Shown piece by piece: positions 5,803 through 53,564 of a stretch of 64,000 nt of DNA (position 1 is its first letter; each line of letters starts with the position of its first letter). The stretch is taken from positions 3,658,001 through 3,722,000 of the forward strand of contig UYFQ01000001.1 in assembly GCA_900617105.1 (NCBI GenBank), written 5' to 3'. The position numbers and the translations under genes are program-made. The notes under the pieces were generated by a model. That model saw nothing but the letters and a program-made list of their open reading frames with translations, did not search any database and was not told where the DNA came from. This DNA is from Hydrurus foetidus. Lineage: Eukaryota.

Positions 5803-5833
5803 CTAATTTATACCTGAAAAGCATCAAATTAGC

Positions 5834-12106: not shown

Positions 12107-12115
12107 ATTTAACCC

Positions 12116-24761: not shown

Positions 24762-25900
24762 ATGGCTTGAGCAATCAGCTCACCATTTTTCTGACCTGTG
24801 GCGCCCGCGTTAATTGCTTCTTTCGCTATATTTTCGGTAGCAACTTCTTGCGCTGCAACAAGCGCGCGCTCTAGCCTGGTGCTTTGCCCGGCAGCGTCTA
24901 AAAGATCACAAGCCAGCAACACTTGGCCAAAGCGTTGTGGCCGCCTGAACGCATCGCAACGTTCAAGCAACTGCACCAGGCCGTCCGCATCAAGCGCCGT
25001 ACTGCCAGCCACATGCGCATGCTCGCGTGCCACCAAACCGGCCAGCTCGCGGCACTCGACCGGGACGCGCAACCGCTCACACAATGCGCTAATTATTGAA
25101 CTTATTAAATTGGGGTCAGACTCCAATTGTTTTACGCTGCTGCTCACCATGCAGGCAAAGCGCACGGGCAGTGGCGCACAAGCACCTGCTGCGCGGTCAA
25201 TCACCGCATCAGCGCCTGCATTCCACGCGAGCTCAGGCAGCAACTTTTGCAGCGCGCCACATGTCTCTAAAACGTGCATCATGCGCGATGGCTTGGCTTC
25301 CATCAGGCCGCGCGACAGCTCTTGCCACACGCGCTCAGCCACCAGCGCGTCTGCCTCGCCAGCGGTCACCATGTTGGTCATCAGTTGCATGGTCTCTGGT
25401 GCCACGCTGAAGTCTGCAAAGCGCGCCGCAAACCGCGCTACCCGCAAAATGCGCACCGGGTCTTCAGCAAATGCCTCAGTCACATGCCGGAGCACCTTTG
25501 CAGCAATGTCGCGCTGGCCACCATGCGGGTCAATCAAATGCGCTGGATTCAGGTCAACTTGCACGCCAAATCGCTCTGTAGCCCAATCAATCAGTGCGCA
25601 AGCAGCTATTGAATTTATAGTTAAATCGCGCCGGGCCAGGTCTTGATCTAACGTCACATCGGGGGCGGCATGCACGCTAAAGCCGTGGTAGCCGCGTGCG
25701 GTTTTGCGCTCGGTGCGGGCCAGCGCATACTCTTCTTTGGTGGTCGGGTGTAAAAAAACCGGAAAGTCTTTGCCGACTGGCAAAAACCCGCGCGCGGCCA
25801 GCTCTTCAGGCGTGCTGCCGACCACCACCCAGTCGCGGTCTTGCACAGGCAAGCCCAGCAAGGCATCGCGCACCGCACCCCCGACCATGAAAATTTCCAT
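24707..25900 (-). CDS. cca: CCA tRNA nucleotidyltransferase (HD domain degenerate)
   Basis: [34 protein letters not shown]. Confidence 0.93.
24794..24841 (-). repeat. Degenerate 48-bp dyad element copy in cca C-terminus
   Basis: GCTA-ccgaaaata-TAGC...ccacagg = [16 protein letters not shown], same frame and register as other copies. Confidence 0.55.
25108..25128. repeat. Short palindrome AATTGGGGTCAGACTCCAATT inside cca
   Basis: 10-bp arms with one G-T mismatch; partial copy TCAGACTCCAATT at ~50215-50227. Confidence 0.65.
25574..25621 (-). repeat. 48-bp dyad element copy overlapping the cca RRDLTIN motif
   Basis: ACTA-taaattcaa-TAGC-tgcttgc-GCAC-tgattgatt-GGGC-tacagag = [16 protein letters not shown]. 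Confidence 0.85.
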
Positions 25901-25938
25901 GGGGGCAGTTTAGCGGGCGCAACTCATGGCGACACAGT

Positions 25939-26631
25939 TCAAAGTCGAGAGGCGCTCAACCTATACGGCTCTTCAAAAGGTCTGAAATCGTTTTCCTTTA
26001 AGGCCGCGTCCATCCACAGCTTGACACCCGGCAACTCAATCAGGCGCTTAACGTAAGCGGTGATAGCGGGCGGCACGGGCAGCGAGTAGGTTTGTAGCCG
26101 CATGCCGATGGGCGCAAAGTAAGCGTCAATGGCGCTGAACTCGCCCATCAATAGCGGGCCTTTGTGCTCGGCCAGCAGCTCACTCCACATGGCAACAATG
26201 CGGGTAACGTCTGCCTGCACAGCCGGTTTGTCGCGCCAAACGATTCTGCCTACTTCAGCGAGGTCAGCCTCTATGTTCATCGGGCAGGCCGAGCGAAACG
26301 CGCCAAATCCGCTGTGCATTTCAGCGCACAAGCTGCGCGCCCGTGCCCGGGCTTTTGTGTCTTGCGGCCAGATGTTTTTGGCTGGGAATTTATCGGCCAG
26401 GTACTCAGTGATGGCCAGCGTGTCCCACACCGCAAAGCCGTCATCGACTAGCAGAGGCACCTTGCCCGTGGGCGACAGCGCCTGCATGGTTTGATGAAAT
26501 GTCGAGCCAGCGTCGAACGAGTCAAACCGAACACTGACTTCTTTAAATTCAATCCCAAACTGGGTGAGCAGCACCCATGGGCGCATTGACCAGGACGAGT
26601 AGTTTTTGTTGCCGATATAAAGCGTGAGCAT
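25939..26631 (-). CDS. Glutathione S-transferase family protein
   Basis: NKNYSSWSMRPW, SPTGKVP, DTLAI.EYL. Confidence 0.92.
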   Translation of the reverse strand: MLTLYIGNKNYSSWSMRPWVLLTQFGIEFKEVSVRFDSFDAGSTFHQTMQALSPTGKVPLLVDDGFAVWDTLAITEYLADKFPAKNIWPQDTKARARARSLCAEMHSGFGAFRSACPMNIEADLAEVGRIVWRDKPAVQADVTRIVAMWSELLAEHKGPLLMGEFSAIDAYFAPIGMRLQTYSLPVPPAITAYVKRLIELPGVKLWMDAALKENDFRPFEEPYRLSASRL

Positions 26632-26830
26632 GGTGCCTCTTTCATGTTGGGAAATTGCAATTGCGATGGTAGCCTGAGCCCGTTTTTGAATTGATGCTGA
26701 AAGTGAAGACTATTCATGCGCGCCGCGTGCATGCCTGCCACCCTGCAACTCAGCGGTTTGGGAAAACCCGCCTTGCTGCCTGCAGCGGTCATGTGAATAA
26801 TTGCAGTAAAACTTTCTTACCGGAGACCCC

Positions 26831-27928
26831 ATGCATTTATTGACCCCCATCGCCGCAATAGCTACCGCCTTGTGTTGCCTGAGCGCAGCCGCCCAGACCA
26901 TTGCTGCGCAGCCCGGGCAAACTGGCGCAGGCCGCGTCACGCTGGCCGTGCATGGCGGATCGGGCACGATCACACGCGGCACCATCACGCCTGAAATTGA
27001 AGCCAATTACCGCGCTGCGCTTGACCGCGCGCTCAAAGCCGGCCATGCAGTGCTGGCCAGCGGCGGCAGCAGCGTGGACGCCGTGGTGGCCACCATCAAG
27101 GTATTTGAAGACGACCCGCTGTTTAACGCCGGTAAGGGCGCGGTGTTCACCAACGAAGGCAAGAACGAACTTGACGCTTCCATCATGGACGGCAAAACCG
27201 GGCTGGCAGGCGCAGTAGCTGGGGTAACCACGGTGAAAAATCCGATCACTGCCGCACGCGCAGTGATGGACAAAACCCGCCATGTGCTGATGGCCAGCAG
27301 CGGCGCTGACAAATTTGCAGCTGTGCAAAAGCTCGACATCGTTGCACCGGATTACTTTTACACCCCGCACCGCTGGGACCAATTGCAAAAAGCCAAAGAG
27401 CGCGACCAGATTCAGCTTGACCACGACGGCAAAGCCAAAACGTCGGCATTGCCTGGTGCGCCTCTGGTTGCTGCGCTGCCAAGCCCGTTTGAGCCCTGGA
27501 TGATTGACAACAAATTCGGAACTGTGGGGGCAGTGGCGCTTGATGCAAAAGGCAATCTGGCGGCCGGCACATCTACTGGCGGGCTTACCAACAAACTGTA
27601 TGGCCGCGTCGGCGACTCGCCGATTATTGGCGCCGGCACATATGCCGACAACGCTACCGTTGCCGTCTCTGGCACTGGCACCGGCGAGTTTTTTATGCGC
27701 GGCGTGGTGGCGTACGACATTTCAGCCCGCATGAAGTACGCTAAAGCCAACTTGTCAGACGCGGTAGACCAAACCATCAAAACCGCACTCGACGACAAAC
27801 AAGGGCGCGGCGGCGTGATTGCACTGGACAAAGACGGCAACATCAAGTTCGGCTTTAACACCGAGGGCATGTACCGCGGCTACGTCAAGGCCGATGGCAA
27901 GCCGGTGATTCAGATCTACCGCGATTGA
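26831..27928 (+). CDS. iaaA: Isoaspartyl peptidase/L-asparaginase (Ntn hydrolase) with signal peptide
   Basis: VHGGSG, FNAGKG, GTVGAVA, GRVGDSP, GTGTGE. Confidence 0.88.
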   Translation: MHLLTPIAAIATALCCLSAAAQTIAAQPGQTGAGRVTLAVHGGSGTITRGTITPEIEANYRAALDRALKAGHAVLASGGSSVDAVVATIKVFEDDPLFNAGKGAVFTNEGKNELDASIMDGKTGLAGAVAGVTTVKNPITAARAVMDKTRHVLMASSGADKFAAVQKLDIVAPDYFYTPHRWDQLQKAKERDQIQLDHDGKAKTSALPGAPLVAALPSPFEPWMIDNKFGTVGAVALDAKGNLAAGTSTGGLTNKLYGRVGDSPIIGAGTYADNATVAVSGTGTGEFFMRGVVAYDISARMKYAKANLSDAVDQTIKTALDDKQGRGGVIALDKDGNIKFGFNTEGMYRGYVKADGKPVIQIYRD

Positions 27929-27944
27929 AACTGCTGGTGGCGGT

Positions 27945-28892
27945 TTAAAACCGACCAGCCGTTTTGCGCTTGGCCATCAAGCCGCTTCGCAGGCCCTGGT
28001 TGCCCAGGTAAAACGGCACTATGGCGCTGAGTGATGCTGGTGTGATGCCGAGTGCCTGCAAGCCTTGTAATTTGCCGCTGGCCACGTTGTCAACCTTCAT
28101 GGCGTCGAGATTGTCGCGGCTCATGATGGGCAGGCCCGGGGCAAGTTCCATCAAAGCGGCTTGAATGCGTGCCACGCCGTCGGGCAGGCCAATCACGGGT
28201 TTATTGTTGCCGCTGTACAGGCCCGCCATTTGCACCAACTGCTTGAGCGTGAAAACGTCTGGGCCGCAGGCTTCATACGTTTGGCCCGTCGTGCTGTTGG
28301 GGTCTTCCAGGCATTCGACCAGCGCGATGGCCACATCTTCGACCCACACCGGCTGAAACTTGGCCGTGCTGCCTGCTAGCGGAATAAACGGCAGCATTTT
28401 TTGCAGCGACGCAAAGGTGTTTAAAAATTTATCTTCAGCGCCAAAAATAACGCTGGGGCGCAGTACGCTGACGTCCAGGCCAGAGGCAGCCAGCACCGCC
28501 TCACCACGGGCTTTGCTGCGTTGGTACATCGACGGTGCGTTGGCGTCGGCCCCCAGCGAAGAGACATGAACCACGCGTTTTTGCCCCGCTGCCGCGCAGG
28601 CACTAACCAAAGTTTGCAACAACTGCACATGCGCTTTGTCAAAAGCGGTTTCGCTGCCGTGCAAGATGGCAATCAAATTAACCACTGCATCATGTTCGGC
28701 CAGCAGCGGTGTGAGCGTTGCCGCGTCATAGGCCGAGCCTTCAAGTACATCAACCATCGGCAACATTTGCAAATGCGCAGCGTTCACGCGGCGGCGCGTC
28801 AGCACAGTAGCGCGGTAATCGCCTTCGGCTAACTTCTCGCACAAGTGGCGGCCCACAAAACCAGTGCCGCCGAGGATGAGTATTTTTTTCAT
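27945..28892 (-). CDS. NAD-dependent epimerase, NDUFA9-like
   Basis: GGTGFVG, YQRSK, RPSVIFG, QPVWVEDVA. Confidence 0.88.
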   Translation of the reverse strand: MKKILILGGTGFVGRHLCEKLAEGDYRATVLTRRRVNAAHLQMLPMVDVLEGSAYDAATLTPLLAEHDAVVNLIAILHGSETAFDKAHVQLLQTLVSACAAAGQKRVVHVSSLGADANAPSMYQRSKARGEAVLAASGLDVSVLRPSVIFGAEDKFLNTFASLQKMLPFIPLAGSTAKFQPVWVEDVAIALVECLEDPNSTTGQTYEACGPDVFTLKQLVQMAGLYSGNNKPVIGLPDGVARIQAALMELAPGLPIMSRDNLDAMKVDNVASGKLQGLQALGITPASLSAIVPFYLGNQGLRSGLMAKRKTAGRF

Positions 28893-28965
28893 GAATTTGT
28901 TTTACAAGGTTAAATCGTTTTTGCCTGAAAAGGCTTGTTTTAAGCCTCTTTTAGGAATGTTTTAG

Positions 28966-29013
28966 TGCTGTAGCCAAATAAATACGGGCGCTAGCAGCTC
29001 CTGAATAAGTAGC
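28966..29013 (-). repeat. 48-bp dyad element copy downstream of hicB
   Basis: GCTA-cttattcag-GAGC-tgctagc-GCCC-gtatttatt-TGGC-tacagca. Confidence 0.85.
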
Positions 29014-29020
29014 AGATAAT

Positions 29021-29350
29021 TTATGCAAAACTATCTTGCAAAGCCTCTTGCGCCAGGGTGTTGATGCTTTTTCCTTTGGCTTGCGCTGCAATAGCGAGTT
29101 TTTCGTGCAGCTGCGGGGAAATTCGCAAGTTGAACTTGCCAGAAAAATGGCGCCTTGGCTCAATACCTTTTTCTGCACACACTTGTAGAAAAACCTGTAG
29201 CGAGCGTTTGAATTCTGCGCGCAACTCTTTTGGATTTTTGCCATAAAAGTCCGCACCGCCGTTCAGGCCCAGAATCTCGCCCCTGAACATGTCCAAGTCG
29301 GCGTCAAACTCAATCGTTGCGTGAAAGTCGTCAATTGTCATGGTGTTCAT
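29021..29350 (-). CDS. hicB: HicB antitoxin
   Basis: FSGKFNLRISPQLH RHH motif; coupled to hicA by ATGA overlap. Confidence 0.9.
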   Translation of the reverse strand: MNTMTIDDFHATIEFDADLDMFRGEILGLNGGADFYGKNPKELRAEFKRSLQVFLQVCAEKGIEPRRHFSGKFNLRISPQLHEKLAIAAQAKGKSINTLAQEALQDSFA

Positions 29351-29601
29351 GGTTTTACTCCGTGTTGTTCGAGCCACTTACGAATGGCTGCTACCGCGCC
29401 TTTGTCAGTATTGGGCGAAGGGTGCGGCCGGTGAAAGACCCGCACCTCATTAAACAAGAATACAGAAACGCGGCTACCCGCTCGTTCCTCAATTTCTGCG
29501 CCCAGCTCAATGAACAAACCTTCAACATCGCGCCATTGAACATTCCCGCTTGTTGGCCGCGAAAAAATTAATTCAACAATTCGCTGATAGCGTCGCTTCA
29601 T
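29347..29601 (-). CDS. hicA: HicA toxin
   Basis: GSRV...FHRPHP motif. Confidence 0.9.
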   Translation of the reverse strand: MKRRYQRIVELIFSRPTSGNVQWRDVEGLFIELGAEIEERAGSRVSVFLFNEVRVFHRPHPSPNTDKGAVAAIRKWLEQHGVKP

Positions 29602-29609
29602 TTGCAATG

Positions 29610-29626
29610 GTACCACTTTCAGGTAC
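29610..29626. promoter_or_regulatory. Putative HicB operator
   Basis: GTACC-N7-GGTAC inverted repeat just upstream of the hicA ATG. Confidence 0.45.
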
Positions 29627-29658
29627 TGAGTAAGCCGAGCCCATTTGTTAAGACGTTC

Positions 29659-29943
29659 TCAGTCTCCATCTACAGCTTCCGCTGGGCTTTTATGCGCGCG
29701 ACCGGACAGAGCGAAGTCGTCGCCAGGGTCTGGGCCTTTTCGATACTGGCGGGAAGGCTCTTCGACTTGCCTGTGCACTGCCAGAGTGACCACGGCGCCG
29801 AATACCGGAACGAGCCACACCAATGCCATTTGCCAGCGCTTTTGGGGCGGCGTAGACAAGGTGTCCTTGGCGATAAGCAGCGTGGCCTTGACGTTCAAGC
29901 CAATCAACACACATGCAGCAAACGCGGCGAAAAGAAATTCCAT
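29659..29943 (-). CDS. Small two-TM hypothetical protein
   Basis: Two hydrophobic helices, WLVPVFG motif. Confidence 0.55.
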   Translation of the reverse strand: MEFLFAAFAACVLIGLNVKATLLIAKDTLSTPPQKRWQMALVWLVPVFGAVVTLAVHRQVEEPSRQYRKGPDPGDDFALSGRAHKSPAEAVDGD

Positions 29944-30035
29944 CGTGCGCTACTTTCAAGGCAAGCTGAGCAATGCAACTGATGTAAAAAGTAGAGGTTT
30001 TAGACTGAAAAAACTCAATTTGAAGCGAGATTTAA

Positions 30036-30083
30036 GTCTTTAAACCAATAAATACGGGCGCAAGCAGCTACTAAATAAATAGC
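30036..30083 (-). repeat. 48-bp dyad element copy downstream of slt
   Basis: GCTA-tttatttag-TAGC-tgcttgc-GCCC-gtatttatt-GGTT-taaagac. Confidence 0.85.
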
Positions 30084-30092
30084 AAATATATA

Positions 30093-32156
30093 TCAAGGTA
30101 ACGTGCGATCAGGCTCGGGCTGGCTGGCGTCGCGTGGTGCGACGGTGCCAAGCCTGGCTTTGAGTGATTGCGGCTGGCCGGTCAAAATCGCGGCGTAATT
30201 GGTGGTGTTTGATAGCACTTTTTTAACGTAGTCTCTGGTCTCGGCGAAGGGCACGCTCTCGGCCCATACTGCGGCGTCTACCGTTGGGCTGCCGGGCTGG
30301 CCGCGCCAGGTTCGCGGGCGGCCGGGTCCGGCGTTGTAAGCTGCGGCGGCCAGCGCCATTGAGCCTTGCAAATCATCCAGCACCATTTTCAAATAGCCCG
30401 TGCCAATGGCAATGTTGGTGTCGCGGTCGGTGATCTGGTCTGCCGCAAAACCTGTCATGCCCAAGCGCCGCGCAGTCTCTCGGGCGGTGGCGGGCATGAC
30501 CTGCATCAGGCCCGACGCGCCCACGCCTGAGCGTGCGTCCATGATGAAGCGGCTTTCTTGCCTGATCAAACCGTAAACATAGGCCGGGTCAAGGCTGATG
30601 CTTTGCGCGCGCTTGATCACCGCATCGCGAAACGGCATGGGAAAGCGCTGCGCGAAATCTACTTCGCCCTTGGTTCGCTCGCTGGTGTTGATGCAGCGGT
30701 CCCAGATTTGTTTGTCGCACGCAAATTGCGCAGCTGCAAACAGCTCGCGGTCGGTCATGCCGCCAGGCTTGGCCAAATTGGTGGCGTAGTTCCATTCACG
30801 TACGCCTTCGGGCCGCAGACCGATCGCTATCGCGTAAGCAGCTCGGTTCAGCCCGGGGTTTTGGCGGGCAGCTTCTTTTTCTTCAGCGCTTGGGGCGGCG
30901 GGCTTGGGCGGAACAGTGATTTTTTGGCCCAGCTCTTCAAGTGCCAATTGCTCATAAAACCCGCGCACCGACGCAATGGATTGGTACAGCGCCAGCATTT
31001 CTGCGCGCTGCGGGCTGGTGGGCTCGGCAGGGGCAGAAGCTGCTGCCGCCGTGGTCGCAATGCTGATGGGCAAGCCGGCGCTGATCGCCTTAGCTTTCCA
31101 GTACACCCAAGTTGGCTCCAGTCGGCCCTCGGGGCTCATGGCGTTGATGGCGCTCAGCACGTCTTTGTAGCGCGGCTGGCGGGCTACACGCAACGCGGCG
31201 CGCGCTTTCCAGGCCAGCATGTCGTCTGTCAGGTCGGTTTCTTTGGTGACTTTGCCGTAGTAGGCCAGTGCCTCGGTGGCGGGCACTGTGCCCAGGCGGA
31301 CGGCAGTTTGTTTGCCAATCAGGCCCCACACCCAATTGCGTTCTTCAGTGGTTAATTGACTGCCCCATTTCGCGTCCATCATGGCGGCCGCGCTTTCTGC
31401 ACCCGACTGGTCGGCGCTGGCCATTTTGACCAGCGCCAGTGTGATCAGCTCTTTGCGGGTGCCGCGAATAGCAACGTTCTTCTCGGTCAAAAATTTGGCG
31501 GGGCTGTCGATCAGCTCGTTAACCAGGCCAACGGATTCAGGCGACACGATGGCTACCGCTTCCCGCGCTGCGCGGGGCCGATTGCCTTCAAGTGCCAGCC
31601 GCGCTTTTTGCCACACGTCTTGTGCGTTCAGGTTTTTGGTGCCTACCAGGCGCTCAGCTGCGCTGCGGCAGCCGTCGTCTGCATCGCGCTGGGCATACCA
31701 ATTTTTACGAACCTCGTCTGACAAGCGGGCATCTTGTGCCGGGTTTTTTAAATGCTCGACCAGCAGCGCGTAGCAGCGCACTTCTTTGTCGTCGTTCATG
31801 CGGTAATTGGGGTGCTCTTGCGCAAAGGCAGCCCAGTCGCGGCGCTGGCCGAGCAGCAGCAGCCAGTCGTTGCGCAGGCGGTCTTCCACATAAGTGCCGG
31901 GGTAGGCGCTATAAAACGCCTGCACTTCCTGGCCAGAAGCTTCTGGCAAGCGCGCTTTCAGTTCCCAATACGCGGCGTAACCTTCAAGCGCGTGGCCTCT
32001 GGCTTGGGGCAATAAAGAGGTGAGTTTTTTCTTGTCGCCACGTTTAAAAGCCTGATTCATTTCGACAATCAGCGCGTCGCCAGTCTGCGATTGCACAGCG
32101 GCTGGCCACGCGAAAAACGGAACGACCAGTGCAGTTAGAAAAATTTTAGATAGCAT
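30093..32156 (-). CDS. slt: Soluble lytic murein transglycosylase
   Basis: Signal peptide MLSKIF..., IRQESRF, GLMQVMP, AYNAGPG, ETRDYV. Confidence 0.93.
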   Translation of the reverse strand: MLSKIFLTALVVPFFAWPAAVQSQTGDALIVEMNQAFKRGDKKKLTSLLPQARGHALEGYAAYWELKARLPEASGQEVQAFYSAYPGTYVEDRLRNDWLLLLGQRRDWAAFAQEHPNYRMNDDKEVRCYALLVEHLKNPAQDARLSDEVRKNWYAQRDADDGCRSAAERLVGTKNLNAQDVWQKARLALEGNRPRAAREAVAIVSPESVGLVNELIDSPAKFLTEKNVAIRGTRKELITLALVKMASADQSGAESAAAMMDAKWGSQLTTEERNWVWGLIGKQTAVRLGTVPATEALAYYGKVTKETDLTDDMLAWKARAALRVARQPRYKDVLSAINAMSPEGRLEPTWVYWKAKAISAGLPISIATTAAAASAPAEPTSPQRAEMLALYQSIASVRGFYEQLALEELGQKITVPPKPAAPSAEEKEAARQNPGLNRAAYAIAIGLRPEGVREWNYATNLAKPGGMTDRELFAAAQFACDKQIWDRCINTSERTKGEVDFAQRFPMPFRDAVIKRAQSISLDPAYVYGLIRQESRFIMDARSGVGASGLMQVMPATARETARRLGMTGFAADQITDRDTNIAIGTGYLKMVLDDLQGSMALAAAAYNAGPGRPRTWRGQPGSPTVDAAVWAESVPFAETRDYVKKVLSNTTNYAAILTGQPQSLKARLGTVAPRDASQPEPDRTLP

Positions 32157-32165
32157 CGAGTCATT

Positions 32166-32738
32166 ATGGACAAAATAAATACCCGCAAAGCCTTGGTTGA
32201 ACAACGCCTGAACCTGCCCGACCGTTTGGAGCGCGCTGACATGCTGCAGCGCGTTATGCGCATCTGGTTGTTCAGCCGCCCCGAGGTGGTGATTGGTGCG
32301 TATTGGCCCATCAAAGGCGAGTTTGACCCGCTGCCCGCCCTGCATCGCTGGAAGGAAGACGGCGAACTGCTCGACTCCCCCCAATTGCGGCGCATTGGCC
32401 TGCCGGTGGTCGATAAGGTGCATAAAACCTTGAAATTTCACGCCTGGTACCCCGGCTGCCCGATGGAAGAAGACGCCTACGGCATACCCAAACCCAAAGA
32501 CACCGAAGTAATCGTGCCCACGCTGCTGTTTGTGCCCTGCGTAGGCTATGGGCCAGGCGGCTTCAGGCTGGGCTATGGCGGTGGGTTTTATGACCGCACG
32601 CTGGCGGCACTTTTGCCTAAGCCGTTTACTGTTGGGCTGGGCTACACCAACGGCTGGTTGCCTGATATGGAGCCCGAGCCGCATGATGTGCCGCTGGATG
32701 CTTTGCTTAATGACAATGGGGTGGTTTGGCCTGTTTAG
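32166..32738 (+). CDS. ygfA: 5-formyltetrahydrofolate cyclo-ligase
   Basis: RLGYGGGFYDR and HDVPLD motifs. Confidence 0.9.
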   Translation: MDKINTRKALVEQRLNLPDRLERADMLQRVMRIWLFSRPEVVIGAYWPIKGEFDPLPALHRWKEDGELLDSPQLRRIGLPVVDKVHKTLKFHAWYPGCPMEEDAYGIPKPKDTEVIVPTLLFVPCVGYGPGGFRLGYGGGFYDRTLAALLPKPFTVGLGYTNGWLPDMEPEPHDVPLDALLNDNGVVWPV

Positions 32739-32804
32739 CAAGCTATAGGATCGCTCGCGGTTCTGATGTAACACGTACAATGCGTTGCATTACAAACAGA
32801 CCGA

Positions 32805-33086
32805 ATGCCGACCATGCCGACATCTGCACACCCCACGCCTGCTCCTTCGTCACAAACACGCACGATCAACGTTCGAATTCCCATCAGCGTGTTTAACCAA
32901 CTGGACGAACTCGCCACAGCCACAGCCAGAACAAAAAGTTTCGTCACCGTAGAAGCTCTGTCGAGCTATCTTGAAGCACAAGCCTGGCAAGTCAAAGAGG
33001 TGCAGGATGCCATCCTAGAGGCAAACAGCGGCGACTTTGCGAGTGAAGAGCAAGTCAACGCTGTCTTTGCAAAATATGGCGCTTAG
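32805..33086 (+). CDS. RHH/CopG-type antitoxin
   Basis: INVRIP..LDELA..RTKS; upstream of RelE/ParE toxin. Confidence 0.8.
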   Translation: MPTMPTSAHPTPAPSSQTRTINVRIPISVFNQLDELATATARTKSFVTVEALSSYLEAQAWQVKEVQDAILEANSGDFASEEQVNAVFAKYGA

Positions 33087-33088
33087 AA

Positions 33089-33364
33089 ATGACGCTTCGA
33101 TTACGCTGGACGAATCGCGCACTTGGTCGCCTCGATATGATTGCCGCCTACGTTGCCAAAGACAGTCCGACACGGGCAAAAACTTTCACGCAAGAGCTTC
33201 GCAAAAAAGTGGACATTTTGAAGTCGCAACAAATAGGGACGGCGTGGAAAGTCTTCGGAACCAAGCAGTACTTACTTCACCCAAATTACATTGCCATTCA
33301 CAAAGTCAAAGACGGTGAAGTACAGATATTGACGATCTTGCATTCTGCGCAGGAGCAGCGATGA
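33089..33364 (+). CDS. RelE/ParE family toxin
   Basis: LRWTNRALGRL...NYIAIH...VQILTILHSAQ. Confidence 0.8.
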   Translation: MTLRLRWTNRALGRLDMIAAYVAKDSPTRAKTFTQELRKKVDILKSQQIGTAWKVFGTKQYLLHPNYIAIHKVKDGEVQILTILHSAQEQR

Positions 33365-33582
33365 AATGAATATCTAGGTAAGGAGCTGAAAGCACTAAAG
33401 TCGCTGCACTAACCTCGCGTACTCCCCCCAAAAGTATGGTTTATCGATGATTGCAACCAGTTATTTAAGGGGACGAAGCTCTATACAAAGTTTGTTGTCG
33501 TTGCCTCAGTAGGAAATGGGAGGTCTGATCCCAAAGTCTTGCTCTGACTAACAGTGCCTCACACGAAAGGTTTTGCTCACCT

Positions 33583-34635
33583 ATGAAATCCCTTGTATTG
33601 ATTCTCGGCGCGGGCGCGAGCAAAGAAGTCAACCTGCCCATAGGAACGGAGCTCAAGTCTGAAATAAGTCGTTTGCTTGATATTCGATTCCAACATGGTT
33701 TTCGGCAAGAAAGTGGTGACGACCAAATCACTAATGCGCTGCGCTTTATCGCGTCAAAAGACAAAGAGCAGGCAGAACAAATCAACCCTTTTCTGCACAT
33801 GTGTTGGCGCATCCGCGATGCGATGCCACAAGCAATATCCATCGACAACTTCATTGACAGTCACGCTGACGAGCCAAAGATCGCCTTGTGCGGCAAGCTG
33901 GCAATCGCTCGCGCCATATTGGCCGCAGAAGGTAGGAGTGCCCTCGCCATCAATCCAAACAACATCAACAATAAGCTTAACTTTACTAAGTGCACGACAA
34001 CTTGGTTTAACGCCTTTTTTCAGCTGCTGACAGAAAATTGCCGAATTGAGGATTTGCCCGCACGTCTTAAAAGCATTGCAATTGTGACTTTCAACTATGA
34101 CCGCTGCGTTGAACACTTCATGTTCAACGCAATCCAGAACTACTATAGCGTAAATGCAGAAAAAGCCGCCGAGCTCCTTACAAACCTAGAGATCCATCAC
34201 CCCTACGGAATGGTTGGAGGCCTCCTATGGATGAGACGCAATAGTTCAATAGGGTTTGGCGCTGAAGCTCATGTCGCTGACTTGGTAACCGTCTCGCAGC
34301 AACTTAGGACGTTCACCGAAGGGACCGACCCAGTGGTCAGCGACATCAATCAAATTCGCTCAACCGTCGCCGATGCTAAAAGGCTCGCTTTCTTGGGATT
34401 TGCATTCCATCGTTTGAATATGGAACTACTGTTTGACAGTAAATCGTTGCCGAAAAAGAGGACGACTCAAGGCGTCTTTGGAAGCGCATTAGGCATATCT
34501 GCCAGCGACTGCACTGTGATTACAAACGAACTCTCAGCACACACTGGCCTGGTAAGTGGCTCAATACAACTCCGAAATGATTTGACCTGCGCGGCCCTCG
34601 TTCAAGAATACTGGCGTAGCCTATCGCTGGTTTAG
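33583..34635 (+). CDS. SIR2-like / AbiH-like protein, candidate defence NADase
   Basis: LILGAGAS, IVTFNYD, HPYG, FLGFAF motifs; atypical codon usage. Confidence 0.7.
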   Translation: MKSLVLILGAGASKEVNLPIGTELKSEISRLLDIRFQHGFRQESGDDQITNALRFIASKDKEQAEQINPFLHMCWRIRDAMPQAISIDNFIDSHADEPKIALCGKLAIARAILAAEGRSALAINPNNINNKLNFTKCTTTWFNAFFQLLTENCRIEDLPARLKSIAIVTFNYDRCVEHFMFNAIQNYYSVNAEKAAELLTNLEIHHPYGMVGGLLWMRRNSSIGFGAEAHVADLVTVSQQLRTFTEGTDPVVSDINQIRSTVADAKRLAFLGFAFHRLNMELLFDSKSLPKKRTTQGVFGSALGISASDCTVITNELSAHTGLVSGSIQLRNDLTCAALVQEYWRSLSLV

Positions 34636-34766
34636 CAGCTCTTGCTACGAGTGGAATTTCTCACTGACCATTGGCCGAGACTTCTCTAATTACATTCGCG
34701 CTGCCTACGCGATAGTTTGTTTGAACACTACATTGAGCTAATTGACAGTAACTGGCAGTCTGGCCC

Positions 34767-35740
34767 TTAATCCCGTCCATCCACCGTATCCGCATCAGCC
34801 ACATCCCCAATAGCCTGACGCGTCAGCAGCGCCTGGCCGTGCAGCCAGTCGCAAAACGCTTTGACCTCTGGCCGTGCCGCGTTACGGGGGCCGATGATTA
34901 GCCAGTAGACCAGCGGTGAATCAAGCCGCAGCTTGGGAAATGGCTCTACCAGGTCACCCGACGCCAACGCGTCTGCCACCAGTGGCGTGCGGGCCAGCGC
35001 GGCGCCTTGGCCGGTCAGTGCTGCTTGGGCGATTTGGTTGGCGTAGTTCAAATACAGCCAGCGTTTGGGCTCAAAACGTTTTAGGGATTGAGCATCAAAC
35101 CAGCGCTGCCAGGTGAGTATTTCAAGGTGCTGGCTGCGGTGTGCGTCGCCAGCTTCAATCAAAGCGAACTGGGCCAGGTCTTGCGGGGTTCTCAGGCGCG
35201 TGGCGGTTTTTAAAAGCCACGGGCTGATAACAGGCGTGAGCTGCTCGCCAAACAGGCGCTGCGCCCCCGCCGGAACATTGCCGGGCACGCTGTAGCGCAG
35301 GGCCAAATCAACGTCGGTGGTGTCCAGGTCAACTGCTGCGTCTGTGGCATCAATACGAATGTCAATATCGGGGTGCTGGCGCTGAAAAGCCTCTAGCCGG
35401 GGAATGAGCCACATCGACGCAAACGACGCCCAAGTGCTGATCGCCACACTCTTGCGCCCGGCGCTTTGGCGAATCAGCCGCACGGCAGCGTCCATGCGCT
35501 CCAGCGCGGGCAGCACGGCGCGCCCGCGCCCGTCAGCTCCACCGCCCGGGTGTGGCGCAAAAATAAACTCACGCCCACGTTGTCTTCAAGCGCCTGAATT
35601 TGCCGGCTGACGGCCGACTGCGTCAGCGCCATTTCTTCAGACGCCGCGCGAAAGTTCAGGTGCCGCGCCACTGCTTCAAAAGCGCGCAGCTGGCCAGCGG
35701 CAATCGGCCGTGAACGGGCATGAGACAAAGCATTCAGCAT
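34767..35740 (-). pseudogene. Frameshifted LysR (GcvA-like) regulator
   Basis: HTH (LRAFEAVARHLNF...TQSAVSRQI) in 35474-35740 and substrate-binding domain in another frame (34767-35516); junction ~35517-35522. Confidence 0.8.
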
Positions 35741-35764
35741 AAAAATTAAACCCGCCAGTAAAAG

Positions 35765-35789
35765 TTGATTAATGCGTTTTATGAATCAA
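35765..35789. promoter_or_regulatory. Putative LysR binding site
   Basis: TTGATT...AATCAA dyad between divergent LysR and DUF2917-like gene. Confidence 0.5.
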
Positions 35790-35877
35790 TAGCGTAGCTC
35801 GTTTTCATTGGACTGCCAAGCAGCAAAGCGCGATTATTCAGGCGTGACAAATTTTTAGTGTTTTAAAGGAGCACAGC

Positions 35878-36366
35878 ATGAACCTTTACTTTCCAGCCCA
35901 GCTACCGGCCAACGACGCTGCTCACCAAAGCGGCAATTGGCTTTTACAAACCGGCCGCGCCATTTCGTTGATGCCAGCTGCGGGCGGGCAATTGACTGTG
36001 GCGAGCGGCCAGTTGTGGGCCACGGTGGGGGAGGGCGGCCCCGCGCTGCGCCGCAACGCCCGTCTGGCGCGCTGCGCCACACTGCAAGACCACTTTTTAA
36101 ACGCGGGCGACACCCTGCTGGTGCCGCCCGGCGCGCGGCTGGTGATTGAAAGCATGGGGCGCGCGCAGGCGATGCCTGCCGCGTTTGCCTGGAGCCTGTT
36201 GCCACAACTTGCCGTGCAAACAACCCGCCCGCGACGGGCAGGCGTGGTGCAGGCCGCCGGCGAGGTTGTGCAGGCGCTGGGGCAAGTGGCGCACGCCCTG
36301 CGCCGCCTGATGGACGCGGTGCTGGCCGGGCCAGGGCGTGGCCAGCCAGCTGAGACCTGTGTGTGA
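35878..36366 (+). CDS. DUF2917-like protein
   Basis: LTVASGQLWAT...DHFLNAGD; AAGGAG RBS; divergent from LysR. Confidence 0.7.
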   Translation: MNLYFPAQLPANDAAHQSGNWLLQTGRAISLMPAAGGQLTVASGQLWATVGEGGPALRRNARLARCATLQDHFLNAGDTLLVPPGARLVIESMGRAQAMPAAFAWSLLPQLAVQTTRPRRAGVVQAAGEVVQALGQVAHALRRLMDAVLAGPGRGQPAETCV

Positions 36367-36408
36367 GCGGTTGGCGGTTATTTGGAGTCCGGCGCAGACA
36401 GTTTTATT

Positions 36409-36456
36409 GCTATAAAAACAGAAGCTGTTACTGGCCTTTTTTATGCGGCTAGAAGG
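36409..36456 (+). repeat. Degenerate 48-bp dyad element copy, intergenic
   Basis: GCTA-taaaaacag-AAGC-tgttact-GGCC-ttttttatg-CGGC-tagaagg. Confidence 0.65.
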
Positions 36457-36644
36457 GGTTTTTAGGTAGATTTAGAGCAAAAACCAGCGTTTTTGAGACC
36501 GTTCGCCGGGCGTTATAACGGGGCGCGGTTGGGTTCTAGAAAGATTGACGTCTGCGTAACCAATTCCGCTTCGGTAAACTAAATGCTGGCGAGTCCGATC
36601 AAGACGGCAGCCACTCACACAGCCATTTGTTCAGGAAATTCGCC

Positions 36645-37643
36645 ATGTCTACCGCGCCCAAAGCCTTCGCCTCTCAAGCCGATCTTGAAGACAAAAAAAT
36701 CACCTTTGAGCAACTAAGCGCGCATTGCTGGGCCTACACGGCAGAAGGTGACCCGAATTCTGGCGTGATTATTGGCGAAAAATTCATCATGGTCAGTGAC
36801 GCCACCGCCACGCCGGTGATGGCGCAAGACCTGATCGAACGGATTCGCAGCATCAGTGACAAACCTATCAAATATGTGCTGCTGACTCACTACCACGCCG
36901 TTCGCGTGCTGGGCGCCAGCGCCTACATTGCCGAAGGTGCTACTGAAGTGATAGCTAGCCAGGGCACGTACGAGCTGATTGTTGAGCGTGGTGCCCAAGA
37001 CATGCAAAGCGAAATGGAGCGTTTTCCGCGCCTGTTCCGCAACTCTGAAAGCGTGCCCGGCCTGACCTGGCCCACGATGGTGATCAGCGGCGGCGACCCG
37101 ACCAAAGGCGAAGCCCCGGGCAAGTTAACCATTGACTTGGGCGGCGTTAAAGTGCAAATCTGGCACCCCGGTCCTGGCCACACGCGCGGTGACACCATCG
37201 CTTGGGTTGAAGAAGAAAAAGTTTTGTTTTCAGGCGACCTGGTGGAGTACGAAGCCGGCGTGTACACCGGCGACGCACAGCTTGAAGAATGGCCCGACAC
37301 ACTGGAAAAGTTGCGCGAATTAGAAGCCGAAGCCATTGTTCCCGGCCGCGGTGAGGCCATGAAAGGCGCTGACAACGTGCACAAAGCGCTCGACTACACC
37401 CAGTGCTGGGTGCAAACGCTGTACAAGGCGGGCAAAGAAGCGGCTGCCGAAGGCATGGACTTGAAAGCCGCGATGGCGCACACCCGCCAGTCAATGGACC
37501 CGATTTTTGGCCACGTGTTTATTTACGAGCACTGCCTGCCGTTTGACGTGAGCCGCGCATTTGACGAAGCCAGCGGCATTAAAAACCCGCGCATCTGGAC
37601 GGCTGAGCGCGACAAAGAGATGTGGAGCGCGCTTCAGGCTTGA
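36645..37643 (+). CDS. MBL-fold metallo-hydrolase
   Basis: THYHAVR, GHTRGD, SGDL, PGRG (atypical metal ligands). Confidence 0.8.
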   Translation: MSTAPKAFASQADLEDKKITFEQLSAHCWAYTAEGDPNSGVIIGEKFIMVSDATATPVMAQDLIERIRSISDKPIKYVLLTHYHAVRVLGASAYIAEGATEVIASQGTYELIVERGAQDMQSEMERFPRLFRNSESVPGLTWPTMVISGGDPTKGEAPGKLTIDLGGVKVQIWHPGPGHTRGDTIAWVEEEKVLFSGDLVEYEAGVYTGDAQLEEWPDTLEKLRELEAEAIVPGRGEAMKGADNVHKALDYTQCWVQTLYKAGKEAAAEGMDLKAAMAHTRQSMDPIFGHVFIYEHCLPFDVSRAFDEASGIKNPRIWTAERDKEMWSALQA

Positions 37644-37710
37644 AGGGCGCTTCGGGTCTTCGCTTCAAGTTTGAAGGGCGCTTCGGGTCTTCGCTTCAAG
37701 TTTGAAGCGC
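37631..37710. repeat. 31-bp tandem repeat with palindromic core
   Basis: TTGAAGGGCGCTTCGGGTCTTCGCTTCAAGT exactly twice (37640-37670, 37671-37701) plus partial flanks. Confidence 0.9.
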
Positions 37711-37735
37711 AAGTGTGTAGCGCGGTACGCAGCGC

Positions 37736-38617
37736 CTACTTCTTGCCCACCAGCACCTTGAAGTCTTGCTCATAACCCGCCAACACCTCAACCGCTTTTT
37801 TGCGCTGTTCGGCAGAAGTGGCGTTGTGCAGCTCGGCAAAACTGGCGCAACCTTCTTGTGTGATGGTTTCCAGGTAAGTTTTGTAAGCGGCGTCGGGCGA
37901 GGCGATTGACCTGGCCAACAAGCTGCGTACTTCTCCTTGCGTCGTAGCCGCGTCTTGCGGGCTGGCAATGACTTTGCCCAGCGTTTGCACAATGTCTTTT
38001 TGGCGGCGCTGTCGTTCAGCGTAGCTTTGCGCGGCTTTAAATTGCGACTTTTCAATCTGCTGCGCAATCAGGCTGCGCTGCTTGTCGGTCACGCTGCCGT
38101 ACAACATGTCAGCGCGCTTAATCGCGCTTTTTTGCCGCTTTTCAAACAGGTCTTTGGCGCTGCCTTCCAGGTAGTCTTCTCGCCAAGTGGTGTTGCCCTT
38201 GGCAAATTTGCGTTCCATCACCGTGAGCTGTTTGGCGCTTAAGGTGGCGGCCACGCTAAGAGTGGCGGGCTCGGCGTAGTCGGTTAGCGCCAGCGCTTTT
38301 TGGCGCACGTCAGCAAACACATCGCAGGCCTGCACGGCGGTGATGTCTTGCGGCATTTTTTGCTGAATTTTTTGCAGCAAATCAATGTAGCCTGGCAACT
38401 GGGTTTGGCGGTGCCACGCCATGAACTTGGTCAAATCGGTTCGTACTTGCAGGCTTTGCACCTCATTGAAGTCGGCGTAGCCGTCCAGGTACAAATAAGC
38501 CAGCTGGGGTGCCTGGTTGTACGCAATTTTCACGGCGCTGCACGCCTGCAGCAGGGCGGCTGCAGCCAGCAGGCTGATAATTCCGCACAGCCTTAAAAAA
38601 TTCACAGGAAATTTCAT
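37736..38617 (-). CDS. Lipoprotein (DUF6279-like)
   Basis: Lipobox LQAC-S, KIAYN, WHRQTQLP. Confidence 0.7.
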   Translation of the reverse strand: MKFPVNFLRLCGIISLLAAAALLQACSAVKIAYNQAPQLAYLYLDGYADFNEVQSLQVRTDLTKFMAWHRQTQLPGYIDLLQKIQQKMPQDITAVQACDVFADVRQKALALTDYAEPATLSVAATLSAKQLTVMERKFAKGNTTWREDYLEGSAKDLFEKRQKSAIKRADMLYGSVTDKQRSLIAQQIEKSQFKAAQSYAERQRRQKDIVQTLGKVIASPQDAATTQGEVRSLLARSIASPDAAYKTYLETITQEGCASFAELHNATSAEQRKKAVEVLAGYEQDFKVLVGKK

Positions 38618-40046
38618 GTCAGTTGTTGCTCCCACATTGCCAGCTTATCCAGTTGATGTCGTCATCATGGCCGCGGGCAAAGGCACGCGAATGAAAAGTG
38701 CACGGCCCAAAGTATTGCACCGACTAGGTGGCAACGCCTTGCTGGGCCATGTGGTTGACTGCGCTGCCGAACTGGCGGTGCGCCGCATGGTGGTCATCAC
38801 GGGTCACGGTGCTATCGAAGTAGAAGCTGCTTGCGCCCTATTTCAGGGGGCTACGGGCGCGTTTGACTTGAAATTCGCGCGCCAAAACCCACAATTAGGC
38901 ACTGGCCACGCGGTGCAACAAGCCGTGCCGCTGCTGGGTGATGACGGAGTGACGTTGATTTTGAATGGCGACGTGCCCTTGATTGCAGTGCAAACGCTGC
39001 GCAATTTGATTGCCGCTTGCCACGGCAGCAAGTTGGCCCTGCTGACACTGACCATTGCGGACGCCACCGGTTACGGCCGAATTGTGCGCAACTCCAAAAA
39101 TGAAGTTTTGGCGATTGTGGAACACAAAGACGCCACGCCCGCCCAGCGCGACATACGCGAGTTTTACACCGGCGTGATGGCGGTGCCCAACGCATTGATC
39201 AAGGGTTGGCTGGCGCGCCTGACCACCCACAACGCCCAGGGCGAGTACTACCTGACAGACCTGGTGGCGCTGGCCGTGGCAGATGGCGTGGCAGTCGTGG
39301 CGACCCACCCCGACAACGAAGCCGAAGTATCAGGCGTGAACGACCCCCAGCAACTGGCGGCCCTGGAGCGTGCCTACCAGCAGCGCCGGGCAATGGCGTT
39401 AATGGAGCAAGGCGTGCGCCTGGCCGACCCGGCCCGCTTTGACGTGCGCGGCAAACTAACCTGCGGGCAAGACGTTGAGATTGACGTGAACTGCGTGTTT
39501 GAAGGTGCTGTGGCGCTGGGCCACAACGTGCGAGTAGGCGCTAACTGCTTTATAGCCAATTGCACGATTGCTGACGGCGCTGTGATTCACCCCTTTACCC
39601 ATATAGATGGTGAAAAGCTTGGCGTGAGCGTAGGCGACGGCGCGCTTATTGGCCCGTTTGCCCGCCTGCGGCCCGGCGCGCAATTGGGCGCTGATGTCCA
39701 CATCGGCAATTTTGTCGAGGTCAAAAATTCAACTCTGGCCAAAGGCGCCAAAGCCAACCACCTGGCCTATGTGGGCGACGCAACGCTGGGCGAGCGCGTC
39801 AACTTCGGTGCAGGCAGCATCACTGCAAACTACGACGGCGCCAACAAGCACCGCACCGTGATTGAAGCTGACGTACACATTGGCAGCAACTGCGTGCTGG
39901 TCGCGCCCGTCACCATAGGCGCAGGCGGCACCGTTGGCGGCGGCAGCACGATCAGCAAAAGCACTGAGCCTGGCGGCCTGCACGTAGCGCGGGCTAAGCA
40001 GGTGAGCTTGCCAAACTGGAAGCGGCCTGTGAAGGCTAAAAAGTAG
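38616..40046 (+). CDS. glmU: Bifunctional UDP-GlcNAc pyrophosphorylase/acetyltransferase
   Basis: AAGKGTRMKS..PK, GEYYLTD, hexapeptide repeats, NYDGANK. Confidence 0.97.
   Translation: MSVVAPTLPAYPVDVVIMAAGKGTRMKSARPKVLHRLGGNALLGHVVDCAAELAVRRMVVITGHGAIEVEAACALFQGATGAFDLKFARQNPQLGTGHAVQQAVPLLGDDGVTLILNGDVPLIAVQTLRNLIAACHGSKLALLTLTIADATGYGRIVRNSKNEVLAIVEHKDATPAQRDIREFYTGVMAVPNALIKGWLARLTTHNAQGEYYLTDLVALAVADGVAVVATHPDNEAEVSGVNDPQQLAALERAYQQRRAMALMEQGVRLADPARFDVRGKLTCGQDVEIDVNCVFEGAVALGHNVRVGANCFIANCTIADGAVIHPFTHIDGEKLGVSVGDGALIGPFARLRPGAQLGADVHIGNFVEVKNSTLAKGAKANHLAYVGDATLGERVNFGAGSITANYDGANKHRTVIEADVHIGSNCVLVAPVTIGAGGTVGGGSTISKSTEPGGLHVARAKQVSLPNWKRPVKAKK
38811..38858 (+). repeat. 48-bp dyad element copy inside glmU
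   Basis: GCTA-tcgaagtag-AAGC-tgcttgc-GCCC-tatttcagg-GGGC-tacgggc = AIEVEAACALFQGATG. Confidence 0.85.
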
Positions 40047-40828: not shown

Positions 40829-40876
40829 GCTATTTAATCAGGAGCTGCTCGCGCCCGTACTTATTGGGCTATAAGC
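40829..40876 (+). repeat. 48-bp dyad element copy overlapping the Lrp stop codon
   Basis: GCTA-tttaatcag-GAGC-tgctcgc-GCCC-gtacttatt-GGGC-tataagc. Confidence 0.88.
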
Positions 40877-50211: not shown

Positions 50212-50251
50212 CACTCAGACTCCAATTTAGCTTTTTTTGCCTATTTATTAG

Positions 50252-50299
50252 GTCTTTAGCCCAATAAATACAGGCGCAAGCAGCTGCGATTTACATAGC
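50252..50299 (-). repeat. 48-bp dyad element copy at the right edge of the accessory block
   Basis: GCTA-tgtaaatcg-CAGC-tgcttgc-GCCT-gtatttatt-GGGC-taaagac. Confidence 0.85.
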
Positions 50300-50327
50300 A
50301 TGTATAGCACTGAAAAACCGCCCGAGT

Positions 50328-53464: not shown

Positions 53465-53514
53465 GCGATTCAATGCTGTTTCAGGCTATTTTTGGCTGTT
53501 TTCAATACCGTTTT

Positions 53515-53564
53515 AGGCCTGTAGCCCAATAAATACGGGCGCGAGCAGCTACTATTTCAATAGT
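53515..53564 (-). repeat. 48-bp dyad element copy overlapping the rph stop codon
   Basis: ACTA-ttgaaatag-TAGC-tgctcgc-GCCC-gtatttatt-GGGC-tacaggcct. Confidence 0.9.

Follow-up and report, generated by a model that had tools for sequence, protein, structure and literature searches.

The stretch of DNA described here, called the window throughout, is 64,000 nucleotides long and corresponds to positions 3,658,001 to 3,722,000 of contig UYFQ01000001.1 in the assembly GCA_900617105.1, which carries the name of the eukaryote Hydrurus foetidus. Its GC content is 56%, its Cca protein is 97% identical to Cca of two contigs of Polaromonas metagenome-assembled genomes, the best matches of this protein are all from Polaromonas, and, judged from sequence, the window is the DNA of a Polaromonas. 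An element of about 55 nt is repeated along the window, both between genes and within the reading frames of unrelated conserved proteins, namely Cca, GlmU, a short-chain dehydrogenase (SDR), PhoH, AnmK and a DUF4136 lipoprotein. The peptides that these proteins share through the element carry a signal at the level of DNA. How, then, does one DNA repeat come to be written into so many different proteins?

In the orientation that we call sense, the unit reads GCTAT-N8-TAGCTGCTTGCGCCC-N9-GGGCTACAGGCC and is followed by an A- or T-rich run, as seen by repeat finding, core search and listing of the copies. The original prediction, made from the bare letters of the window, was right that the repeat is genuine. 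The core TAGCTGCTTGCGCCC is matched 16 times in the window with at most three mismatches against 5.26 matches expected, and none of 100 shuffles reached 16; three exact core 15-mers lie within the 64 kb; and a search with an nhmmer profile, trained on 13 window copies, returns 15 copies. In a 58-column gapless alignment of 89 near-full-length copies, columns 3-5, 16-20, 22, 25-27 and 41-42 are near-invariant, with AT-rich variable segments between them. The consensus holds two dyads, GCTAT/ATAGC and GCCC/GGGC (GCGC in the relative G002), both of which are internal and not terminal. Four reading frames of the element are found in proteins: the main sense frame, A-[IT]-x-x-[IV]-A-A-C-A; a second sense frame, L-L-x-x-E-L-L-A-P; the major antisense frame, A-Q-x-x-R-A-Q-A-A-x-x-x-I-A; and a second, minor antisense frame, G-A-S-S-Y. 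The copies that touch the genes named above, together with one in rph and one claimed copy that could not be upheld, are the following.

25565..25621, minus strand: copy in cca (gene 24707-25900, minus strand), main sense frame; profile score 47.2
38810..38867, plus strand: copy in glmU (open reading frame, ORF, 38517-40046; Pfam), main sense frame, read as GAIEVEAACALFQGATGAFD; profile score 43.6
18055..18111, minus strand: copy in the short-chain dehydrogenase gene (17391-18269, minus strand), main sense frame, read as DAIETVAACAQIQGDSDLFY; score 45.7
6285..6342, minus strand: copy in the C-terminal tail of PhoH (gene 6279-7391, minus strand), the tail ending in NATNKVAARARKTRATGKNDS and the stop; overlaps the ybeY start region; score 44.4
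2024..2079, plus strand: antisense copy in anmK (gene 1784-2917, minus strand), minor antisense frame, read as TEFTARVCITGASSYLNDS; score 34.1
12057..12113, plus strand: antisense copy in the DUF4136 lipoprotein gene (11495-12106, minus strand), major antisense frame, read as MLFTQLTRAQTAIILIA; score 45.1
53511..53564, minus strand: copy at the 3' end of rph (RNase PH; gene 53552-54280, minus strand), from ORF coordinates with the frame read from the sequence; score 58.1
24781..24841, minus strand: claimed second copy in cca, unsupported, without a profile match

The original prediction had placed the phenomenon between positions 25574 and 38858, a span that covers the Cca and GlmU copies and leaves those of SDR, PhoH, AnmK and the lipoprotein outside. 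It had also counted five sense copies in one frame. Four of them, the first in Cca and those in GlmU (AIEVEAACALFQGATG), SDR (AIETVAACAQIQG) and the PhoH tail (ATNKVAARARKTRATG), do share the frame A-I-x-x-I/V-A-A-C-A, and translations and profile agree with it that AnmK (..ARVCITGASSYLNDS..) and the lipoprotein (..QLTRAQTAIILIA..) read the element antisense in two different frames. The fifth, a second copy in Cca at about 24781-24841, has to be given up: the profile does not match there at E<=0.1, only the ends resemble the element with mismatches in the middle of the DNA, and a peptide of the T-x-x-I-A-x-E-A type, as at this site, occurs natively in orthologues of Cca well beyond the genus. 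As to rph, its stop codon (53552-53554) is the TAG of the element's ATAGC, and thus the third sense frame, which is not used inside genes, serves as a gene end.

To see how general such sharing is, a wider sample is needed than one window. Comparison genomes were relatives of the window reached via related loci, of which G001 belongs to the same species as the window. The element-rich sample consists of the window, 14 stretches of G002 and 6 stretches of G003, that is 447.5 kb from three genomes. For a census of frames, ORFs were taken if they had 150 codons or more and extended 25 codons or more beyond the element in each direction, which gave 46 ORF/element pairs, 42 of them outside the window. 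Seven of these 42 were not sent to Pfam (six other ORFs at the same sites, five of them short ones in alternative frames, and one duplicate); among the 35 submitted, 29 matched a family and 6 were without one. A Mn catalase ORF was dropped, as its domain starts downstream of the element, and the census total of 33 is made of the Pfam-supported ORFs after this one exclusion and four window genes; for 6 of the 33, which are close to N-termini, the real start of the gene is uncertain. The main sense frame accounts for 15 of the 33 and the second for 3, the major antisense frame for 13 and the minor one for 2, and the frames containing TAG for none on either strand. Therefore unrelated proteins share a peptide from one frame of the element in 15 of 18 sense copies and in 13 of 15 antisense copies, and the peptides of both these dominant frames are rich in Ala. 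Since sense and antisense are about equal (18:15), a reason at the level of mRNA for the intragenic copies is argued against.

Peptides of these frames are in excess over their reversed counterparts. Among 430 greedy ORFs of the three element-rich genomes (137,120 codons), AACA occurs 15 times and reversed ACAA 4 times, IAACA 10 times and ACAAI never, RAQAA 9 times and AAQAR once, and AQAA 30 times against 17 for AAQA. Most telling is the DNA beneath them: the exact sequence GCTGCTTGCGC encodes 11 of the 15 AACA, of which codon usage predicts about 0.35, and the exact GCGCAAGCAGCT encodes 13 of the 30 AQAA. Among Ile codons the ATA of the motif is rare (9%); its GCT has a share of 17% among Ala codons, and TGC one of 79% among Cys codons. 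A DNA-level signal in the element peptides is thereby shown.

Is the element inserted into these proteins, or is it laid over codons that were already there? The original prediction, from knowledge of the families, had guessed insertion for Cca and GlmU and replacement for AnmK and SDR, and alignment with orthologues bears this out, with 16 more residues in Cca, 2-7 more in GlmU, and no change of length in SDR and AnmK. In Cca the element peptide is encoded by ACTATAAATTCAATAGCTGCTTGCGCACTGATTGATTGGGCTACAGAG, and the 5' dyad of the element encodes T-I-N-x-I-A, a conserved part of the RRDLTIN motif itself. The 16 extra residues are in the loop after RRDLTIN and are counted against Burkholderiales outside Comamonadaceae; in other Comamonadaceae without any trace of the element (JS666, Variovorax, Tepidimonas) the same loop is also longer, by 4-12 residues. 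In GlmU the segment GAIEVEAACALFQGATG falls in a variable loop after the GHG motif, its extra residues being counted against outgroups, and 'EVEAAC' is common in GlmU of Polaromonas, whether the DNA motif is there or not. The SDR segment DAIETVAACAQIQG aligns with outgroups without change in length. The PhoH copy comes after the Pfam domain, which ends at residue 339 of 370, in a tail that is present genus-wide and absent in outgroups. At the AnmK site, 30 of 30 orthologues align without a gap and show a graded series of partial motifs that looks stepwise. In the lipoprotein, the start of the protein and the n/h-region of its signal peptide come from the element, the lipobox LSGC comes next, and this signal peptide equals the MKRALTAIIFVA type of its relatives in length and frame.

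Models of two of the proteins allow the sites to be mapped on structures. In the AlphaFold2 (AF2) model of the SDR, the element corresponds to a helix, residues 42-56, predicted with a local distance difference test score (pLDDT) of about 96, between strands 33-38 and 59-63, i.e. Rossmann-fold strands 2 and 3. In that of Cca (pLDDT 87.7), residues 99-105 are in the first strand of an extended beta-hairpin.

Four further genes, all from G002 (YggS, PgeF, DapF and DprA), were compared with element-poor relatives and one outgroup. YggS does not change in length; PgeF has 4 residues more, DapF 4 and 3 more at two points, and DprA between one less and three more. Because SDR, AnmK and YggS keep their length in comparison with outgroups, being gapless at the element at 37-53% identity, the element there overlies existing codons. 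Taken together, three of the nine internal sites are overlays in the strict sense, codon for codon, and the other six fall in variable regions or tails; the signal peptide of the lipoprotein can be added to the overlays as a fourth. At these sites, element-poor relatives have either a motif in decay (G024) or the unchanged peptide written in GC-rich codons (G012). Parts of the peptides are native or pre-adapted (EVEAA in GlmU, T-x-A-x-x-x-x-L-G in SDR, KRALTAIIFVA in the lipoprotein), and therefore the element seems to settle where the protein already nearly fits. The dprA copy of G002 (L192:4694-4747) is antisense and intragenic, in a recombination-mediator gene of natural transformation; another copy of the same genome (L193:3670-3727) is at the N-terminal edge of a cinA-family gene.

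Abundance of the element differs widely among genomes. With at most one mismatch, the core 15-mer is found 374 times in G001 (202 and 172 on the two strands), 456 times in G002 and 193 times in G003, where the reversed control gives 0-1; among G006-G029, 24 further relatives of the Polaromonas group, a genome has 0-183 matches, and among 16 outgroup genomes 0-1, the reversed pattern giving 0-5 matches across genomes. More distant Polaromonas genomes contain 42-61 exact matches to the 5' dyad-plus-core pattern, and their 3' halves are in a slightly different 'dialect'. Copies downstream of ybeY, in the PhoH tail, in SDR and in Cca recur in genomes whose proteins are only 58-75% identical, and at the former two sites the core is kept across the genus with loops and flanks diverging. 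Because of this recurrence at orthologous places, the element family is to be regarded as old, resident and genus-wide, without a recent burst.

A genome that is poor in the element may keep the peptide and lose the motif. The Cca peptide persists with GC-rich codons in the loci L015, L017 and L019 (the genome of L015 has 10 copies), and TVADCAR of SDR is written ACAGTAGCTGACTGCGCCCGG in G014, with 183 copies, and ACAGTGGCCGACTGCGCGCGG in G020, with 5 copies. The original prediction had named peptides without the DNA motif in distant orthologues as what would speak against it; such peptides are found inside the genus, in these Cca, in SDR of G020 and G023, in YggS of G012 and in GlmU of several genomes. 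Match to the motif at the SDR and AnmK sites rises with the copy number of the genome itself, with Spearman coefficients of 0.72 for SDR and 0.52 for AnmK (0.67 and 0.45 without G001). Intragenic copies also score higher with the dialect of their own genome: four of four window copies, seven of seven copies in G013-like genomes, and seven of seven Cca copies in G046-like genomes. This dialect tracking is only suggestive, because GC differs among the genomes (56-57% in element-rich ones, 60-64% in element-poor ones and G013) and GC drift could give the same result.

Where do the other copies lie? The profile finds 111 copies in the 447.5 kb, one per 4.0 kb, 45 on the plus and 66 on the minus strand, and their spacing is somewhat more even than random (coefficient of variation, CV, 0.78 over 100 gaps). 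By greedy ORF calling, according to which 91% of this DNA is coding, 33 copies (about 30%) are intragenic, 10 are at gene ends, 61 are intergenic and 7 are at locus edges. The intergenic ones stand between convergent genes in 25 cases, divergent genes in 5 and tandem genes in 31. Those of the window, all found with the profile, are as follows.

5754..5810, plus strand: copy in the gap between convergent genes, just downstream of ybeY, a position at which many Polaromonas genomes keep it
28958..29014, minus strand: intergenic copy between an epimerase-family gene and hicB
30028..30083, minus strand: intergenic copy between convergent genes
36409..36458, plus strand: weak, degenerate intergenic copy; score 18.1
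40829..40885, plus strand: copy between a PIN-domain gene, ending at 40825, and an AsnC-family gene (41352 back to 40861, minus strand), whose last codons and stop it overlaps; ORFs
50245..50300, minus strand: intergenic copy between convergent genes
61313..61368, plus strand: intergenic copy next to two tRNA genes (Rfam), forming an inverted pair with the copy that follows
61435..61487, minus strand: intergenic copy, the other arm of this pair

From these observations, we favor, with a probability of roughly 0.55, that the element is an old, Polaromonas-wide signal of about 55 nt which has been overlaid on tolerant segments of proteins by drive or selection at the DNA level. Substitutions biased toward the consensus of the family would create and keep the copies in genes; the drive or selection would be exerted by a putative reader of the motif; and protein function would only filter which sites and frames survive. 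New intragenic copies may arise stepwise, or by short-patch conversion, where the native sequence already resembles the motif, and receptive sites are supposed to be helices of the type A-x-x-x-V-A-x-x-A, signal peptides and loops. In lineages that have lost the maintaining factor, or are under stronger GC pressure, the motif would decay at synonymous sites and the peptide would stay. Candidates for the maintaining agent are an uptake receptor, a DNA-binding protein and gene conversion. The claim in the original prediction that a DNA-level signal drives protein evolution is upheld in this form by the peptide excess with the exact motif, the codon-for-codon sites and the correlations at SDR and AnmK; it has to be tempered in that the peptides are partly native.

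It is to be noted that several results weigh against this explanation. Five of the nine internal sites (Cca, GlmU, PgeF, DapF and DprA) are in loops of variable length, where insertion is possible. The GlmU site does not correlate with abundance (rho 0.17), and the correlations at the other two sites come from non-independent samples, because the genomes are related. In unselected pools of orthologues, synonymous identity in the element window is unremarkable, with windows as high or higher numbering 82 of 354 in Cca, 175 of 224 in SDR, 430 of 430 in GlmU and 19 of 332 in AnmK; the element windows are top-ranked only in subsets chosen by the motif, a choice that is circular. GC pressure alone could explain both the decay of the motif and the tracking of dialects. 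ComEC is uninformative, because it is present regardless of element load (37 of 41 genomes), DprA is likewise present without discriminating value, and no reader protein has been identified. Covariation in the stems does not exceed that of shuffles, the observed score being reached in 113 of 500 and 307 of 500 (hairpin 1 and both registers of hairpin 2), and because of this a hairpin in the element is only possible. Rfam at gathering thresholds finds two tRNAs in the whole window and nothing at the copies. Finally, intergenic DNA is about 22 times richer in copies, with preference for convergent ends (25 versus 5 divergent), which is typical of repetitive extragenic palindromes (REPs) or terminators, and the conserved span of at least 27 nt is far above any known uptake sequence.

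The last points lead to the alternative that survives best. A REP-like structural or regulatory element might be kept by purifying selection as a binding site for a nucleoid protein or gyrase, or as an RNA hairpin or terminator at 3' ends, with the intragenic copies being by-products of ectopic gene conversion from about 800 genomic copies. The enrichment at intergenic 3' ends and convergent genes, the hundreds of copies per genome, the even spacing and the keeping of intergenic copies at orthologous places all suit it, as does the dyad symmetry of the consensus, in which 84.6% of cells are paired against 22-51% when the partner is slid. It has difficulty with the genes: 15 antisense against 18 sense copies are ill-suited to a role at the mRNA level, the flanking identity needed for conversion into unrelated coding sequence is not evident, the partial motifs at the AnmK site look like steps, and the hairpin is without support from covariation. 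We regard this alternative as possible and rather unlikely.

Insertion of a mobile element in frame, the shared peptide being the element's own ORF, as with transposable elements of the miniature inverted-repeat kind (MITEs) or the palindromic elements of Rickettsia (RPEs), is improbable. It would account for the residues added in Cca (16), GlmU (2-7), PgeF (4) and DapF (3-4), for the tail gained by PhoH and for the dominance of one frame, and the same Cca does contain another repeat, a palindrome associated with a RAYT (REP-associated tyrosine transposase), clearly inserted in frame. It would not account for the unchanged length of SDR, AnmK and YggS, nor for the long Cca loop in Comamonadaceae that lack the element, and the 5' part of the element, encoding T-I-N-x-I-A of the catalytic motif of Cca, adds nothing there. 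Copies orthologous across species whose proteins are 58-75% identical are, moreover, not recent, and the palindrome on both sides of the sole Y1 transposase gene is another one. As for MITEs in particular, no terminal inverted repeats are seen (target-site duplications were not searched for systematically), and the orthologous loci compared show graded decay instead of filled and empty sites. Chance or convergence at the protein level, by which ordinary Ala-rich helices would look alike in DNA through codon usage, is hardly credible despite native peptide parts in outgroups (EVEAA, T-x-A-x-x-x-x-L-G) and the claimed second Cca copy, which is exactly such a case, in view of the exact 15-mers and 16 core matches in the window, 11 of 15 AACA from one 11-mer with minor codons, reversed peptides 4 to more than 10 times rarer, and fixed frames on both strands.

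It is worthwhile to compare the element with known repeats. REP and REPIN elements, which go with RAYTs, number hundreds of copies and prefer intergenic 3' ends. The element resembles them in both respects, and its antisense strand, GTAGCCC.., has GTAG beside a short GC-rich dyad; it differs in that about 30% of its copies are intragenic and that the RAYT-like gene is flanked by another palindrome. HIP1 of cyanobacteria (GCGATCGC) is an 8-bp palindrome. Like HIP1, the element is written into coding sequence via choice of codons and residues without insertion and is conserved at orthologous sites; unlike HIP1, it is a long, asymmetric signal, and the peptides read from it have 13-19 residues.

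Uptake sequences, i.e. the uptake signal sequences (USS) of Pasteurellaceae and the DNA uptake sequences (DUS) of Neisseriaceae, are a close parallel. In the sections of Findlay and Redfield (2009; PMC2817400) that concern us, 1,471, 765 and 1,892 copies per genome are given, 65%, 49% and 34.5% of copies are in ORFs in three genomes, and a bias of reading frame and inflated frequencies of the encoded peptides are described. Likewise, the element is over-represented on both strands, has many copies in ORFs (here about 30%), enters coding DNA by substitution with frame bias, and inflates peptides; as with the uptake sequences in those sections, copies are at poorly conserved positions and add no residues. 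Its density, about one per 4 kb, is lower than the roughly one per 1-3 kb that follows if the counts in those sections are combined with the sizes of the genomes. It departs from them in length: the USS/DUS cores have 9-12 nt, and here the near-invariant span covers columns 3-27 and 41-42, at least 27 nt conserved within a 55-nt unit with two internal dyads. RPEs, as a review presents them in the portion bearing on this point (Ogata et al. 2000, via PMC10969869), are insertions of about 150 bp that add residues. In common with what that portion describes, the element is a dispersed, palindrome-containing repeat, in frame in unrelated housekeeping genes, and gives a shared peptide compatible with the fold; in contrast to it, the unit is only about 55 nt, at least three sites (SDR, AnmK and YggS) add no residues, additions being restricted to variable loops (Cca, GlmU, PgeF, DapF) and the PhoH tail, and both strands are read. 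Both analogies had been drawn in the original prediction; that with uptake sequences fits better and that with RPEs worse, since several of the copies bring no residues with them. A long shared peptide is a trait of RPEs and the overlay mode one of uptake sequences; the element unites the two, and in its behavior it is nearer to uptake sequences or HIP1 than to the inserted palindromes of Rickettsia.

Two other identities were rejected. BRE, according to the description of the repeat in Hot et al. (2011; PMC3110155), is about 90 bp with 69% GC, is often tandem as a variable number tandem repeat (VNTR), and is found in Comamonadaceae including Polaromonas sp. JS666; as a Comamonadaceae repeat with some copies wholly inside coding sequences it is similar to the element. 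The element is not BRE, which is GC-rich, tandem and about 90 bp, and of which JS666 has by that description 29 copies, where it has 3 matches to the element core. The second is a repeat mobilized by a RAYT. The Y1_Tnp gene is single-copy, is in 34 of 41 genomes including element-poor ones, and is not flanked by the element; around the RAYT-like gene in L220 the element is not matched even at E<10. This gene is flanked by a different, perfectly complementary palindrome of 27 nt, TTTAATTGGGGTCAGACTCCAATTAAA. Papers on repetitive extragenic palindromes of Polaromonas do not describe the element, as far as their text and, for one, title and abstract go, and a full-text search, with subscription journals and supplementary files outside it, found the 13-mer core in no paper.

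If the element is more than a passive repeat, what could it be for? A speculative and rather doubtful extension is that it is a long, structured, 55-nt self-recognition signal for uptake or recombination, which would be the first outside Neisseriaceae and Pasteurellaceae, that its drive has re-coded about 200-250 protein segments per genome, and that lineages that lost the reader erase the signal at synonymous sites and keep the peptides as fossils. If this were true, the segments re-coded would include the catalytic-motif strand of Cca, signal peptides, Rossmann-fold helices, C-terminal tails and stop codons. More generally, if a signal of 55 nt can be imposed on coding sequence without insertion, a measurable share of residues, here with a few hundred sites in each genome and about 15 codons per site, is set by something besides protein function. 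The effect goes beyond the tripeptides of uptake sequences, and the peptides have 13-19 residues and are predicted, from the models, to form a helix in SDR and a strand in Cca. The element offers a natural experiment on how much protein folds tolerate, a marker for lineages and dialects of Polaromonas, and a pointer to a candidate sequence-specific reader, whether for uptake, binding or conversion, in a widespread genus of cold environments. It also matters for annotation, for it supplies the stop codon of rph, the start region and signal peptide of the lipoprotein, and the C-terminal tail of PhoH.

Several other features are to be mentioned. At 25108-25128, Cca contains a second, unrelated repeat in frame, the palindrome AATTGGGGTCAGACTCCAATT, which flanks the RAYT-like gene of G001 and G021 in inverted orientation. 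In Cca of the window and of L001, L002, L003 and L023, it stands in place of the HD-domain segment HDLGKG...HIGHE kept by most orthologues, and therefore the window Cca is without the HD motif; in Cca of L004 and L017 it comes right after HDLGKGI, and in L015 an inverted doublet is there (29 residues more). Intergenic DNA downstream of ybeY in the element-poor G020 and G023 (L229, L234) has another small repeat, TTTTTAACGT(A/G)TA(T/C)GTTAA(T/A)TTTTTGCCGT(T/G)TACGTTAAA. The inverted pair of element copies in the window (61313-61487), about 120 nt apart, is downstream of two tRNA genes (61608-61794) and upstream of a gene of the GreA/GreB family. The longest stretch of the window free of copies runs from 40885 to 50245 and includes a segment of low GC (49% at 44-48 kb) with an ORF of 1258 codons; this stretch, about 41000-50200, may be acquired DNA. 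Lastly, two adjacent paralogous genes, 13068-15017 and 15222-16991, form direct repeats that are 78-80% identical with a spacing of 2019 nt.

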